DNA from: Elusimicrobiota bacterium
GTDB lineage: Bacteria; Elusimicrobiota; Elusimicrobia; F11
Length of the DNA stretch: 19,832 nt
Assembly: GCA_046153645.1 (NCBI GenBank)
Contig: JBJXGI010000059.1
Coordinates: forward strand, 1-19,832
Direction of reading: 5' to 3'
Shown here: positions 6,001 through 18,000 of the stretch, piece after piece
Numbering within the stretch: position 1 is the stretch's first letter
Layout: every line of letters begins with the position of its first letter
Position numbers: made by a program

Positions 6001-9000
6001 ACACAGGGTTAGAAGTTGACCTTATTATTGAAACTCCTCAAAAAAATATCGCAGTGGAATGTAAATATAGTCAAAATGTGGGTGTTTCTGATTTGGTGGG
6101 CTTACAAGCTTTTGAAAAGTTATCCAAGAAGAAATGTGAAAAAATTGTGCTCAATCTTTCAACACGTAGGCAACTTTTTCCCACAAAAGAACGGGTTGTA
6201 CACTTTCAAGACTTTTTACTTAAAGAATTGCCAAAAATCTCTTAAAAATCTCTCCAATTCTTACTATTTCTTTACAACCCTCTTATTTTAAACTTTTCTT
6301 TTCTTTCTAATATCCAGGGAAATGATAAAGACCTTTCAGTTTAAATTTTATTTTTTCCCCTTCTTTCTGCTTTTATATTTGGGCTCTAAACCCATCAAGG
6401 CCATTTCCAATCAAAGCAGTGGCATCCCTGAAGAATGTTCACACCTTGTGAAAAAAGTTTTGATGTTACCTGAAGAAAAAATTGACGTCGGAATGGCGGC
6501 TCTGGCTTTTGCAAAAGAAATATATCCCGATTTAGATATAGCCGCTTACTCAAATAAACTTGACGTTTTGGCTGAGCAAGTGCGGCAAATGTCCAAAGAA
6601 ACTAAAAACCCCGATCAAAGAATTCGATGCCTTAATACGGTCATACTTCTTCATGAAAAATACCAAGGAACTAAAGATCTTGCCACAGCTCGTACATCGC
6701 AGATGTATTACCTTAACCGCGTTTTGGACACCAAACAGGGTAACTGTGTCTCCATGCCACTCCTTTATATTGCTGTGGCAGAGAGATTGGGTTGGCCTAT
6801 TTATCTTGTACATGTACCGGATCATTCGTTTGTCCGCTATGTTGACCCGGCTCTAAAAGAGCAAAACATTGAAGCAACCAGTAATGGCGGAACTGTGTCT
6901 GATGAACAGTACTCAAAAGATTTTTTGGTGAGCCAAAAAGGGAGAAAAAGTGGCGCTTATCTCAGAACGTTAACCCATCGAGAGTTACTGGGAGACTTGG
7001 CGGCTATTAATGGAATTTCTTTCGCCCGACAAAAAAAGAGGTCAACAGCCGTCGCGTATCTAGAATTGGCCACAAAACTAAATCCCAAAAATGTCGCCGC
7101 ATGGAGAAACCTTGCCTACGCCTATCATATATTGGCAAAACACTCAAAAGATGAAGATGCAAAAAAGTATGCCGAGAGAATTAAAGTCATAACAAAAAAA
7201 CTAAATGAACTGGGGTTTGTCGATCCGAAAGACATCTACTAACCATGAGAAAAATTGTTCTCATCTCCATATCATCACTTATTTTTATGACTGGTTGTTT
7301 TAGGACCGCCAATGGAGTTTCTCCCCGGTTCTGGAAAAACCGAGCGGTTCATATTGGTGTTGGGATAAGGGTATTGCCTCCTCATATAGATGTAAACAGA
7401 AAAGATTTATATCGTGAGATGTTGCTCCATAACGATTTCCCAACATTCACTGAAAACGAGAAATACATTATTCAGAAGTTTGTAATAGAAGAATTTAATG
7501 ATGTCGTAAGTGATTTTGTTAGGGAGTTAAACAGATGTGGATTTCAAGCAAAAAAAATTTCTGACTTTGTAATACCAAAATCGGAAAGGAAGACTGAAGT
7601 CGATTTGACTTCAATTGCAAATGAAGCAAAAGTCGATATATTAATCTTGTTTAATGTGCATTCCCTCGGAATTCTAAACCATTATGATAGAAAAAATAAT
7701 CTCATTCAAAGCAGTGCTAAGCTGGGCGTCTACGGATATATGTCAGAAATGAAAAACGGAAAAATGAAGGCGGGTTTTTTCAAGCAACACCTATGGACAA
7801 TGTTTTTTTCAGAAGAAAACGGAACGATTCCCATTGAAGGCGATTGGAGGCAACCGCCAGACTATCCAAAACTAAAATCGGCCCTCAAAGAAGCCATTAC
7901 AAAAGCCAAAGTTTTTTTTATTGAAGATTTTTTTAAACGGGAAGAGTAAAAGAAATTTTAGTTCCTTTTCCTATTCCTTCAGATTCAGCCCAAATTTTCC
8001 CTTCGTGAGCTTCTACCCAAGCCTTAGCGATAGCTAACCCAAGGCCTGAGCCTTTGGCTTGGTGTTTACCTTGATAAAAACGATTGAATATTTTTTTTAG
8101 GTCGTCTGATTGTATTCCCCTTCCTTGATCTGATACAGAAAAAATCACAGAGTTTTGTATTTTCTTAAAACTGACAGATATATCGCCTGAGTTCGAAAAT
8201 TTAATGGCATTTGTAAGAATATTAGAAATGATTTGTTTTAGACGAACTTCATCAGCTGGAATGAATAAACTTGAATCTAACGAGAGTTGAAACTTGAGTC
8301 CTTTTTTTTCAACCGCTGGTAATAATAAGTTTATTATTGATCGTGTTACTTCTGAAAGATTTATATTTGTTTTGATTAATTGAAAACTTCCTTCTTGAAT
8401 TTGAGCTATGTTCAGCAAGTTAATAGTCAATTCTTCTAACCGCAGTGAATTACTTTTTATCATTTCGACATATTCTCTGAGTCGTTCCTGATTCAATGCA
8501 GGTTTTTTAATTTCTGTAGATAGTACTTCCAGTGCACCATCAATAGAAGAAAGAGGGCTTTTTATTTCATGGGTAAACCCAGCGGCCAGTTGCCCTTTTA
8601 ACCAAAACTCCTCCTTTGTTAAAAAAGCATAAATAAACGGACCCACGGATAACAGCAGTCCCGATATCAACATACTAAGTCCAAATTCAATGATGTTTCT
8701 CTTAGAGGCACCAAAATGGAAAACAGAAATTAATTTGGGAATAAATAAAGGAATCGTGATGGCAAATAACCCAATATAAATAAGTAAAAGAAGAATAATT
8801 TTTCGATTAACTAAATTAATTTGAAGAAATTGATATCGAATCATTGTATAAGCAATGATAGATAAGAATATCAGCATTGATATATGTCCTGTTACCCATT
8901 GGTTGAGACCTATACAAACCAGAAAATCATTAGCGCCTAAAACAGCGATTGAAAAACCAATAGTAAAATTTAAATATTGTCGTTTTTCTTCAGGGGCAAC

Positions 9001-15000: not shown

Positions 15001-18000
15001 AAAAAAATAAATACCTAAAGATATATAGCCAGAAGCATAAATAGGTACTTTATGGGCCACCAGATAATCTGTTCCTCCGGTATAAGCAATGAAAATACCA
15101 ACTAAATATATTTTTAACGTTCTTCGTTCATCTGTAGATTCAGCTTTTTTCAAATCTTTCAATAGATCAACCACAATAAGAATAAAGCCACCGAACATGT
15201 TGAGGTACAATAAAATCTCATAAATTGAAGCCATGAGGTTGTCACGATATATAGGGAATCTTCCCCATGTTAATTGATTAAAATCAATCATGTGTTCATT
15301 TCCCCTAATCATCCAAGCCATTAAAAAAAATGAAACCATAAAGTCGATCAATATGAACTTATTGTTACGAGTTCTTCCCGAAATAACACAGGTAAAATAA
15401 TAGAATCCAAGTGAAATGAACGGGATCCCAAAGGTATAACCCAATTTAAACCAAAACCTCGCTTGAATATTTGTTTCGACTAAAGAAATCATTCCAAAAC
15501 AAAAACACCAAATAAAGGTTGGAATGGTGGCGACAAAAAATGATCTATTTATTTTTGACTTATGTCCCCCTAATAACACAATTAAACCGGCAGATAAATC
15601 AAAAATAGCAACTGCTACAACTAAGAAGCCATGAATATTAAATCTGAAATAACTTTGAAGTGCCAAAAGTAAATTTTCCATGTTCATTAAATCGGCAACG
15701 TAAACCAAAACGTCGCCCCCTTCCCCACTCCCTCTGAGTCGGCAAAGATCTCTCCACCGTGGGCTTCTATCCAGGTTTTGGCGATGGTAAGACCGATGCC
15801 ACTGCCTTTGGAGTTTTTATTGTTTTTACCACGATAGAAACGGTCAAAAACATAAGGCAAATCAATGTGATCAATACCAATTCCTGTATCAATAACTGAA
15901 ACAATTAACTTATCCTTATCACACTTGGTTTCTATTGATATTTTTCCAGAATCTGTAAATTTTATGGCGTTAGATAATAAATTAGAGATAACCAGCTCTA
16001 GTTTATTTTCATCTGCTTTTACGAGAAGTTTATTTGATTGGTCCTTTATTTGAAGTTGGATATTTTTTTTGTTTTGCAAGAGATTCATATTGAGGAATTA
16101 ATTTTTCAATGACGGTTGAAATTTCAACATCATGGAAATTTTCTTCACACATTTTTTGATTTGGCTGATATATCTGGAGAAGCGATTGAACATAATCTGT
16201 TAAACGGTCCGAATTTTTTTGAATCATTTCTATATATTCTTCTTTATTGCCTTGGTGATGTTTAATCATATCTAGTGCGCCATGAATGGCTGAGAGTGGG
16301 CTTTTGAGTTCATGCGTTAAAGCAGAAAAATCCCCTTCTTGAAAGTATTGGTTGCGTTTAATTAAATAAGCGTAAATAAATGGTCCCGTTGAAAGAACAC
16401 AGGCAACCATAATAATTTCAAAGAAAAAAAGTGAAAAAGGCATATAAAGAGTAGAAATTATTTTTTTATGCAAGAGATACACAACTGGAATTGAAACAAG
16501 AATTAAACCAATGTAAAGGATGATCCCCAAAGTAGCTCTTCTGAGAAAAATTCGAACATCCAAAAGACTATACTTCAAAATGGCATAAGCCATAATAATG
16601 GGATAAATGCCTAATAAAAAATTTCCATAGGGGTAAATATCAACATAAAAATTGGGAAGGAAACATAAAAAACCACCGAAATAACCAATAGAAGTCGCAA
16701 TAAGAAAATACTTAATTTGTGTTCTTTTTCTAAAGGAAACCTTTCGCATTGAAACAAAGAGCTTGTATTGACACAGTAATATGAGGCCTGCCCACCACAA
16801 GAAGAAAACAGGGAAAAGGATTCCCATCCGGGCATAAAAAAATTCACCAAAAAGAAGTTCCGTTTTGTTAAAGAAGTATTGAGTTGGAAGCAACAATAAG
16901 AAAAATAAAGCAATCAGATAGTGAGTTATAACTAAGCTTGTTTTTGACTTTTCTATAAATACGCTAACAAAATGATAAAAAAGAGGTGAAATCCAAATAA
17001 CGCCTAAAGCATATGCCAAAGTACAATAGCGCATGCCCAATTCAGAATTAATAGAGTTACTTCCGATAAAATAACTACCAATTCCCCAGCTTGAGGCAGC
17101 AATTGTAAAAACAAACCACAACTTCCCAACCAATTCATTTCTGCTTTTTAAATATACCAAGAATCCAAATATTAAATTTGAAATCGCGCCGAATACGCCA
17201 GACAAGGCAAAAGCTGTCATAAATTATATTGCAATTTATATATATAGAATAAATGATTGGTTAACACATAAACCGCCAGCCACAGGCAGGTAATGCAATT
17301 GAAGAGGGCGCCGGCTTGGTTGAAATCTAGGTTAGTAGGGGACAATCAGTCTTCGTCGGCTTCGAAACGGTAGCCAATTCCTTTCAAACTTTTGATCCAT
17401 TCACCGTATTTTCCTATCTTTCGGCGGATCTGGTCGACATGAACATCAATGGTGCGAGTGGAGCCCGTGTATTCAATGCCCCAAATGGCTTCTGATATGA
17501 CAGGTCTGGTTAAAACACGCCCTTTTCGTTGCATGAAATAGCCCAGGAGTTGAAATTCTTTGGGTGTAAAAACAACATTTTTATTATTGACCGTGACATT
17601 GTAGCTTGAAAAATCAAGCGTGATAGGACCGGCATGGACGCGTTCAGTGGCAGGTTCATTAAAGTTTCTTCTCAAAACGGTTTTTAGGCGAGCTAACAAT
17701 TCGCGCTTACGAAATGGCTTTGAAATATAGTCTTCCGCTCCCATTTCAAGACCCACCACGACATCGGTTTCATCGGCTTTAACGCTGATCATTATAATGG
17801 GAATATTTTGTGTTTTAGGATCACTTTTAAGTTTCTTGCATACTTGAAACCCGTCTATTTCAGGAAGTCGAATATCGAGCAAAATAATATCGGGTGGGTT
17901 TGCTTGAATTTTTCGAATTCCATCTACAGGGTGTTCAGCCGAAACAACGGTATAACCTTCCGATTGCAATAAATCGGTGGCTATTTTGATCATATCTGGT

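Follow-up and report, generated by a model that had tools for sequence, protein, structure and literature searches.

In the quorum-sensing pairs CqsA/CqsS, LqsA/LqsS, RpfF/RpfC and PhcB/PhcS, the gene of a synthase that uses an acyl thioester lies next to that of the sensor, a histidine kinase with several passes through the membrane, and the signal derives from a fatty acyl chain. The locus described here resembles them in that a candidate acyl-thioester enzyme is encoded beside such a kinase, but it differs in the fold of the enzyme, in its predicted alcohol product, in the HisKA_7TM type of sensor, in the fusion of the enzyme to a PilZ domain and in the presence of a FadL channel, and its candidate pairing is drawn from linkage and co-clustering. 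A fusion of PilZ to a small-molecule synthase that uses acyl-ACP has precedents in Nas343 and Nas354, N-acyl amino acid synthases for which control by c-di-GMP and a messenger role were proposed (PMC4897644). Their fold is that of FeeM, however, their PilZ domain is C-terminal, and the accessible part of that article describes no receptor.

A non-HMG reaction of the HMG-CoA reductase (HMGR) fold is already known. The HMGR-derived FcrA enzymes, among them Pb-FcrA of Ca. Promineifilum breve and the enzyme of Natronomonas pharaonis, were characterised in 2025 (ISME J, PMC11948995), a class that the survey had missed. According to the accessible text, FcrA assayed in E. coli has an elongated pocket and reduces acyl-CoA of C14 or longer to the alcohol with NADPH, but reduces neither HMG-CoA nor C16:1 aldehyde; it was proposed to supply wax-ester and ether-lipid synthesis, often in genomes without WS/DGAT. 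The words PilZ, signal and histidine kinase do not occur in the main text of that article as available. Our literature search, which most subscription papers lay outside, found no description of a cassette of such an enzyme with 7TM and FadL proteins, and the papers it found on HisKA_7TM, as far as accessible, name no ligand.

The window, a stretch of 19,832 nucleotides from an Elusimicrobiota genome, encodes at 12332..14005 on the minus strand, as do all genes discussed here, a putative PilZ-fused FcrA-type acyl-thioester reductase of 557 amino acids. Its residues 186-549 match PF00368 in a Pfam profile search, class I ranks best in NCBIfam with a score below the cut-off (319.6 vs 441.8 bits), and its closest solved structure is the archaeal HMGR 6HR7. 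As the fold search with the full-length protein returned HMGR rows only, the PilZ region was folded separately. All of the first ten Foldseek rows for the predicted model of residues 1-120 were PilZ structures, and the model forms the PilZ beta-barrel; the PilZ-fold domain spans residues ~18-118 (13652..13954). The Pfam PilZ profile does not match this N-terminal domain, while it matches that of 25/33 aligned homologues. Both c-di-GMP motifs are broken in this copy, as the survey had noted: Q18 replaces the first Arg, and S-I-N-L-F-G stands where D/NxSxxG is expected. In the family, RxxxR is present in 31/33 members and both motifs are intact in 10/33. The fusion of PilZ to a class I HMGR homologue is thus borne out, as is the estimate of at least 25 full-length fusions, since 29 of the 119 homologues listed span at least 89% of the length of the 557-aa protein.

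The catalytic residues Glu559, Lys691, Asp767 and His866 are, as had been claimed, all present (E251, K380, D453 and H544), and they are retained in 19/19 closest homologues. With the FcrA described in the accessible text, the protein shares the class-I fold, these four residues, a bulky residue 862, the NADPH motif, a mevalonate-free genome and an extra N-terminal domain, which is PilZ here and Lad/ACP in FcrA. The pocket diagnostics given for FcrA (PMC11948995, accessible part) are a bulky residue instead of Leu862, the replacement of Ser684 (by Glu in N. pharaonis) and a generally small residue instead of Lys735, which is printed there as Lys795 and taken here as Lys735. Position 862 is Tyr540 in our protein, Tyr in 19/19 closest homologues and Phe in 13/14 members of a second PilZ group, compared with Leu in 8/8 archaeal HMGRs and W/F in 82/82 FcrA-type loci. 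Position 684, which is Glu in 58/82 and Ser in 16/82 FcrA-type loci, is Arg373, and position 735 is Arg422, which is still basic. Arg at 735 occurs in 16/19 closest homologues and 6/82 FcrA-type loci, and the second PilZ group has mostly L/A/Q there. Two of the three FcrA pocket marks are thus not reproduced as described, Lys735 being Arg instead of a small residue and Ser684 being replaced, though by Arg, so that a long-chain substrate is not assured.

The survey had explained the change of substrate by the replacement of an Arg and an Asp thought to bind the HMG carboxylate. Both replacements, TRGP to KIGP and TDKK to ANKK, are real in our alignment, but the assigned role does not hold: the accessible text of PMC9500038 attributes the HMG-carboxylate salt bridge to Lys735, and Arg590 and Asp690 are kept in 82/82 and 81/82 FcrA-type sequences, respectively, so that these residues do not mark HMG use. 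We therefore rejected their loss as the cause of a substrate switch. Arg568, a residue of the CoA site (PMC7503714), is present in 8/8 archaeal, 82/82 FcrA-type and 57/57 further comparison sequences, whereas in the PilZ subclade it is found in 0/19 closest homologues and 2/14 members of the second group; two 7TM-paired members without a PilZ match (G903 and G891) retain it. As judged from these alignments, the loss of Arg590 and Asp690 together with that of Arg568 is a mark of the PilZ subclade. The loss of Arg568 also makes acyl-CoA doubtful as the donor, so that of the substrate suggested by the survey, another acyl-CoA, the part that stands is an acyl thioester other than HMG-CoA.

Could the protein nevertheless be a true HMGR, with mevalonate as a metabolite or signal? 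Canonical class-I enzymes (6HR7, 1DQ8) share its fold and catalytic residues, positions 692 and 735 are both basic, and the identity to an archaeal HMGR is 45%. However, the HMG and CoA pockets are rebuilt: Ser684, Asp690, Lys735, Leu862, Arg590 and Arg568, each present in 8/8 archaeal sequences, are all replaced, with the residue at 735 still basic. The host genome, which is 99.7% complete, makes isoprenoids by the MEP pathway (DXR, IspG and IspH were found), and of the GHMP kinases, three in number, one ranks as ThrB, one as HddA-like and one as IspE, leaving no mevalonate kinase. HMG-CoA synthase gave no PF01154 match, in a search that can miss, as it also gave none in an archaeal MAG (G435). 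The rest of the mevalonate pathway is missing, as the survey had reported and as in FcrA genomes. True HMGR activity is very improbable, and the product of this gene is most likely a fatty-acyl reductase carrying a c-di-GMP-type sensor domain.

Overall identity, 41% to a Promineifilaceae FcrA-type protein against the 45% above, does not separate the two classes. In an LG+G4 tree, the FcrA-type and PilZ rows formed one clade (SH-aLRT 100), and the PilZ reductases lay outside the Promineifilaceae subgroup; the tree set did not include the FcrA sequence that has been characterised. Under a mixture model, the class-II root fell inside the PilZ group, and a constraint uniting the FcrA-type and PilZ rows was not rejected (lnL 1.8 higher, p-AU 0.69). 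A FastTree run gave long-branch warnings, and L182 and L164 were excluded from later trees. The motif xR[AG]P, which the survey had used as the sign of a canonical HMGR, occurs in 65 of the best 80 genome matches, of which 64 carry the bulky 862 of FcrA and one is canonical, so that a control group of this kind is mostly FcrA.

The PilZ-reductase gene is surrounded by four of the six PF16927 (HisKA_7TM) matches of the genome. The cassette is headed by an OmpR-type response regulator with REC and Trans_reg_C domains (17346..18032), which is likely the output of the 7TM kinases. A HisKA_7TM kinase follows in two ORFs (16030-17220 and 15687-16088, together 15687..17220) with PF16927, HisKA and HATPase_c spread across the pieces and the H-box present. 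It is split in the assembly by a frameshift at a run of eight A (16063-16070); one independent contig (depth ~3) has one base fewer at 16063 and is otherwise identical, and the kinase is probably intact in vivo. The likely ATG at 15687 of the next HisKA_7TM kinase (14065..15708; HisKA/HATPase, PF16927 at 30.2 bits, above the cut-off, no GAF match) overlaps the stop of the upstream gene. The reductase gene overlaps by 8 bp that of a HisKA_7TM and GAF protein without a kinase domain (10909..12339). Its best matches are 7TM genes that adjoin reductase genes in G064 (43%) and G401 (37%), and of the four 7TM proteins it is the most likely dedicated receptor. The survey had called these neighbours 7TM kinases; all four are PF16927 proteins, but one lacks the kinase domain and another is split. 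A gene for a FadL/TodX-family outer-membrane channel (9618..10895; PF03349, E 1e-56), one of two long PF03349 matches in the genome, starts 13 bp after the 7TM-GAF gene and is followed by a terminator-like hairpin of 12 pairs with a T tail (9557..9586), a pattern match only in a scan that gave 13 sites against a shuffle mean of 9.6. A scan for sigma-70 promoters was uninformative (40 sites, shuffle mean 46.6). The last gene (7933..9531) encodes a HisKA_7TM histidine kinase, a paralogue of the one at 14065-15708.

The link of the enzyme to 7TM proteins, for which the profile used in the survey may have been circular, holds with Pfam's own model in genome sets assembled anew: PF16927 adjoins the enzyme in 13/13 other subclade genomes and 0/53 comparison genomes, the related genomes in these counts not being independent. 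Those 13 genomes have only 1-3 PF16927 matches each (10 in G281), and in 3/13 the enzyme-adjacent match is the sole one. The reductase-adjacent 7TM domains cluster on a tree, with 6 changes for 17 rows against a shuffled mean of 13.6, and 0/500 shuffles were as low. FadL is adjacent in only 3/13 (G064, G281 and G402). A metagenome pattern scan gave 24 loci, of which five without a reductase (L089, L090, L095, L096 and L106) were dropped as chance, and 6 of the remaining 19 end before the downstream gene. Among 18 further 7TM loci, most had no recognisable synthase in the neighbours scanned (30 proteins), and so not every HisKA_7TM gene lies in such a cassette.

The alcohol might instead be a building block of membrane or surface lipids (ether lipid, wax-like ester) made under c-di-GMP control, with the 7TM kinases monitoring the membrane or regulating the operon and no diffusible signal. 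This would agree with the role proposed for FcrA, and sister branches carry genes for WS/DGAT, ketosynthases, FabG-like and PlsC-type acyltransferase proteins. However, no wax synthase was found in the source genome, WS/DGAT and HMG-CoA synthase are absent from 8/8 subclade genomes tested (WS/DGAT is present in 23/47 comparison genomes), the only FAD-oxidase_C match of the source genome, a 706-aa gene, lies far from the cassette, and next to the reductases of the PilZ subclade no gene for lipid assembly is seen repeatedly, unlike the ever-present 7TM gene. We regard this explanation as improbable.

The same-family genome G281 has four cassettes of FadL, a PilZ enzyme and 7TM proteins, in which the enzyme is FcrA-type, acyl-ACP-reductase/PigE-like, an aminoketone synthase of the BioF/CqsA fold or GNAT/FeeM-like, the last labels being Atlas leads at 0.87-0.90. 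The acyl-ACP-reductase-like enzyme occupies the locus orthologous to ours, the regulators heading the two cassettes are 56% identical, and our FadL matches a different G281 paralogue more closely than the one in the orthologous locus. The enzyme slot is thus interchangeable. This bears on a different possibility, in which the cassette handles an outside compound: a foreign lipid or the signal of another species would come in through FadL and, once sensed by the 7TM kinases, serve as substrate of the enzyme, to be converted or inactivated. FadL channels are importers, enzymes of the HMGR fold can also work in the oxidative direction, four receptors for the one enzyme here would suit eavesdropping, and two related 7TM cassettes (L002 and L263) contain amidohydrolases. 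Yet the other enzymes found in the same slot are biosynthetic (aminoketone synthase, acyl-ACP reductase-like, N-acyltransferase-like, ketosynthases with an O-methyltransferase), and FcrA worked as an NADPH-using reductase in the published assay, which makes such detection and conversion unlikely.

We lean, with slightly more confidence than doubt, towards the cassette being a synthase-receptor unit for an acyl-alcohol signal, in keeping with the pair that the survey had proposed. Among relatives, L088 and L101 adjoin FabF or a fab cluster, and L007, of a sister branch, directly precedes WS/DGAT, which also speaks for this reading. Its product, with the substrate, carrier, ligand binding, transport direction, signalling role and c-di-GMP control, is what we infer as follows. 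The FcrA-type reductase would convert an acyl thioester to a primary alcohol in an NADPH-dependent, four-electron reaction by HMGR chemistry. With the CoA-nucleotide contact lost, acyl-ACP is a more likely donor than acyl-CoA. The acyl chain would be unbranched, and R373 and R422 at the pocket floor point, in this subgroup, to a chain that ends in a polar group or a carboxylate more than to a plain C16 tail. The alcohol may be methylated in relatives with an added downstream SAM methyltransferase, to which no family could be assigned (all NCBIfam scores were far under the cut-off). It would leave the cell, or re-enter it, through the FadL channel and bind the membrane-embedded HisKA_7TM domains, which would determine how far the OmpR-type regulator is phosphorylated. 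Gating of the enzyme by c-di-GMP via PilZ is probable for a large part of the family, but in this copy the gate may be dead.

A wider proposal, that of a new signal class, is tentative, and we consider it possible rather than probable. In it, a reductase of HMGR descent would have exchanged CoA for ACP and, controlled by c-di-GMP, would produce acyl alcohols or omega-hydroxy acids, in some lineages methylated, by which cells signal to one another. HisKA_7TM would be a general receptor family for signals derived from acyl chains, in a plug-and-play cassette of FadL, PilZ-synthase and 7TM proteins in which the synthase may be a reductase, but equally an aminoketone synthase or N-acyltransferase. 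If so, the HisKA_7TM sensor domain would gain a ligand class, alcohols would join the bacterial signal chemistries, and uncultured phyla (Elusimicrobiota, Nitrospirota, Acidobacteriota and matches labelled as Omnitrophota) would provide a case of a signal synthase that is itself under second-messenger control. Matched enzyme-receptor pairs with differing pocket residues predict cross-specificity.

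The cluster lies entirely on the minus strand, with intergenic gaps of -59 to 125 bp. It begins with a response regulator (17346-18032), followed by a 7TM (HisKA_7TM, PF16927) kinase with a split reading frame (17220-15687), a second 7TM kinase (14065-15708), the PilZ-reductase (12332-14005), a 7TM-GAF protein without a kinase domain (10909-12339), FadL (9618-10895), and a further 7TM kinase (7933-9531). The host genome (2.63 Mb, 99.7% complete) has six PF16927 matches, four of them within the cluster, and 11 GGDEF matches. The G+C content of the enzyme and 7TM genes (30-34% vs. 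39% in the genome) is consistent with acquisition, but is no proof of it. The split of the first kinase is probably an assembly error; base 16063, in an A-run, is missing from the sole independent contig over the site, which is otherwise identical (depth of about 3; one study, possibly the source itself). Directly upstream of the regulator, on the same strand, are a stand-alone PilZ gene and a Macro-domain gene (18082-19127, minus). The contig ends carry a gene for a large beta-helix exported protein (3-3170, minus), extending past the end, and an RHS-core-like ORF (19424-19831, minus), its motif judged by eye. Elsewhere in the genome (G000:C58:2312-6204), another FadL gene is accompanied by genes for membrane proteins and a regulator.

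PF00368 spans residues 186-549 of the enzyme, which belongs to class I, and a PilZ fold is predicted for residues 18-118; Pfam PilZ matched 25/33 aligned homologues. As the survey's finding had it, the PilZ motifs of this enzyme are degenerate: both c-di-GMP motifs are absent. Both are present in 10/33 family members, and RxxxR in 31/33. The Arg-rich DRR...RR linker behind PilZ (residues 119-181) may offer c-di-GMP or ACP a second docking site; the motif also starts the downstream methyltransferase in some loci (L086:10817, L087:10948). PilZ and reductase are fused in L086 and P0021/P0022, and are separate ORFs in L092, L099, L108, L109, and related soil-metagenome contigs. The isoprenoid background was also as previously described: DXR, IspG, IspH, and IspE were all found in the host genome, HMG-CoA synthase was not, and the three GHMP kinases are IspE and two that rank as ThrB and HddA-like. 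HMG-CoA synthase occurs in 0/8 genomes of the subclade (the enzyme and its close PilZ-linked relatives) vs. 3/47 others. A true HMGR, to which the class I domain would point, is very improbable, and we hold with high confidence that the enzyme does not make mevalonate.

Pocket positions are given in human HMGR numbering, counted from the catalytic residues along a structure-relative alignment and supplemented by a profile alignment, with sequence motifs as anchors. The closest homologues (n = 19) and a second PilZ group (n = 14) were left from 24 and 15 ids once duplicate loci were dropped. "FcrA-type" is a label by residues and gene content, the characterised FcrA being absent from the compared set. 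FcrA, a homologue of class-I HMGR, uses NADPH to reduce fatty acyl-CoA to the alcohol and leaves HMG-CoA unreduced; it is recognised by three substitutions, with a bulky residue in place of Leu862, Glu in place of Ser684, and a small one in place of the lysine that binds the carboxylate (PMC11948995). Position 862 is Tyr in the enzyme and in 19/19 closest homologues, W/F in 82/82 other bacterial loci, and Leu in 8/8 archaeal enzymes. Arg590 and Asp690, which the survey regarded as binders of the HMG carboxylate, were lost in 19/19 close homologues. Both are retained in FcrA-type loci (82/82 and 81/82), so HMG use cannot be read from them. Nor does the xR[AG]P motif mark canonical HMGR, as had been assumed: among the best 80 genome hits, 64 of the 65 sequences carrying it were FcrA-type and one was canonical. 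The carboxylate salt bridge of HMGR is made by Lys735 (PMC9500038). This position is Arg422 in the enzyme and Arg in 16/19 closest homologues, while Ser684 corresponds to Arg373 (R in 13 and H in 6 of the 19); in the second PilZ group, 684 is mostly Gln and 735 small or hydrophobic. Since the usual Glu at 684 and small residue at 735 are not found in the enzyme, its substrate may have a shorter or polar-ended chain. The CoA-site residue Arg568 (PMC7503714) is invariant in comparison sets of 8, 82, and 57 sequences, and is present in 0/19 and 2/14 PilZ-group sequences; its loss suggests that ACP may be preferred over CoA as the acyl carrier.

An LG+G4 tree of 43 rows united the 33 bacterial rows, FcrA-type and PilZ alike, in one group apart from archaeal HMGR (SH-aLRT 100). 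In a mixture-model tree of 32 rows, the distant class-II root fell inside the PilZ group, yet when the 24 bacterial rows were constrained to one group, the likelihood was higher by 1.8 (p-AU 0.69). Membership of the enzyme group in FcrA in the wide sense is thus neither rejected nor proven, and by these sequences the group is a branch separate from the Promineifilaceae-type enzymes. Sister branches that lack Arg590 have as neighbours WS/DGAT (L007) or genes for a ketosynthase, a FabG-like protein, and an acyltransferase (L225, L227, L228), which links the branch to fatty-acyl chemistry. L225-L229, from the Acidobacteriota sample, represent "SYERG", a large branch of FcrA-like enzymes (57/120 protein matches) whose neighbours include genes for ketosynthases, a FabG-like SDR, a phytoene-dehydrogenase-like protein, an acyltransferase, and an ABC1 kinase.

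Within the own phylum, PF00368 was found in 14/401 genomes (class I in 5, including the host; class-II-like by profile score in the others), and within the Nitrospirota group in 12/301. The pairing with 7TM kinases proposed by the survey stood when Pfam PF16927 replaced the home-made profile in 66 genomes: it lies beside the enzyme in 13/13 subclade genomes (in the next gene, or behind a methyltransferase in G403), these being every Arg590-less class-I match in the samples of the two phyla, together with G403, named after many neighbours had been seen. Among 53 comparison genomes, PF16927 occurs somewhere in 14, and in 0/53 does it share a contig with the reductase for which the genome was included (contigs numbered by order of accession, confirmed in the 4 cases checked; that one reductase scored per genome). 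The link is absent in Arg590-less Actinomycetota and Acidobacteriota branches. In metagenomes, a 7TM gene lies near 13/19 reductase loci, the other six ending too early (L104 duplicates L101). Outputs vary from kinases to HD-GYP domains (L088, L101) and a cyclase one gene further (L124), and a SAM methyltransferase follows the enzyme in L013, L086, L087, L092, and L099. The 7TM domains adjacent to reductases cluster, with 15/17 in one 23-row branch (support 89); the tree requires 6 changes vs. 13.6 after shuffling (0/500 as low), a contrast inflated by kinship.

We somewhat favour a signal made from an acyl thioester: the enzyme would reduce acyl-ACP (or acyl-CoA) to an alcohol, which the 7TM receptors would bind as their ligand and which might cross the outer membrane through FadL. 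FadL is adjacent in 3/13 subclade genomes and two metagenome loci. That the module instead senses and processes a lipid from outside seems unlikely. The alcohol as a lipid building block without a signal seems slightly less likely still; WS/DGAT occurs in 0/8 subclade genomes vs. 23/47 others (22/46 without G426).

The cassette is modular. In G281, a genome of the same family, FadL, a PilZ-enzyme, and 7TM occur together four times, the enzyme being FcrA-type, acyl-ACP-reductase/PigE-like (E 1e-18 and 5e-40, under the cut-off), of the BioF/serine-palmitoyltransferase (aminoketone-synthase) fold, or GNAT/FeeM-like. The latter three, paralogous cassettes (L262, L263, and L265 on C24, C11, and C5), offer a ready panel for specificity tests. 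Its regulator (56%) and its kinases (best matches, 29-38%) identify the acyl-ACP-reductase-like cassette as the orthologue of the one in the window. Two different acyl-thioester reductases thus fill the same slot, although the two FadL genes are not best matches to each other. A transglutaminase-like (Transglut_core2) TPR protein is encoded near the cassette in both the window (6322-7242, plus) and G281 (L124:3364-4359). FadL, an acyl-ACP-reductase-like gene, and 7TM also occur together in G401. In G064 C2 (L267:655-7708), genes for two ketosynthases and an O-methyltransferase stand in a row with FadL and 7TM, a further candidate signal cassette, with no PilZ among the genes scanned. The host itself carries a second cassette (G000:C20:15132-19799; L081:4133-8800) with a PilZ/GNAT(FeeM)-like protein, a label that is a lead only despite its high Atlas score, a radical SAM gene (RaSEA-like, 175 vs. 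212 bits), a HisKA_7TM kinase, and a receiver. No recognisable synthase was found at most other 7TM loci fetched.

The reaction class, HMGR-derived acyl reduction, is already published. The literature searched contained no description of the PilZ fusion, the rebuilt CoA/pocket residues, or the fixed 7TM pairing; PilZ, signalling, and kinases go unmentioned in the main text of PMC11948995, as distinct from its figure of fused domains and its supplement. A precedent for PilZ fused to a synthase is given by N-acyl amino acid synthases (PMC4897644). In one FcrA-type homologue, P0116, the reductase is joined to an AfsA hot-dog domain (PF03756, precomputed), whose fold is that of a butyrolactone-signal synthase.
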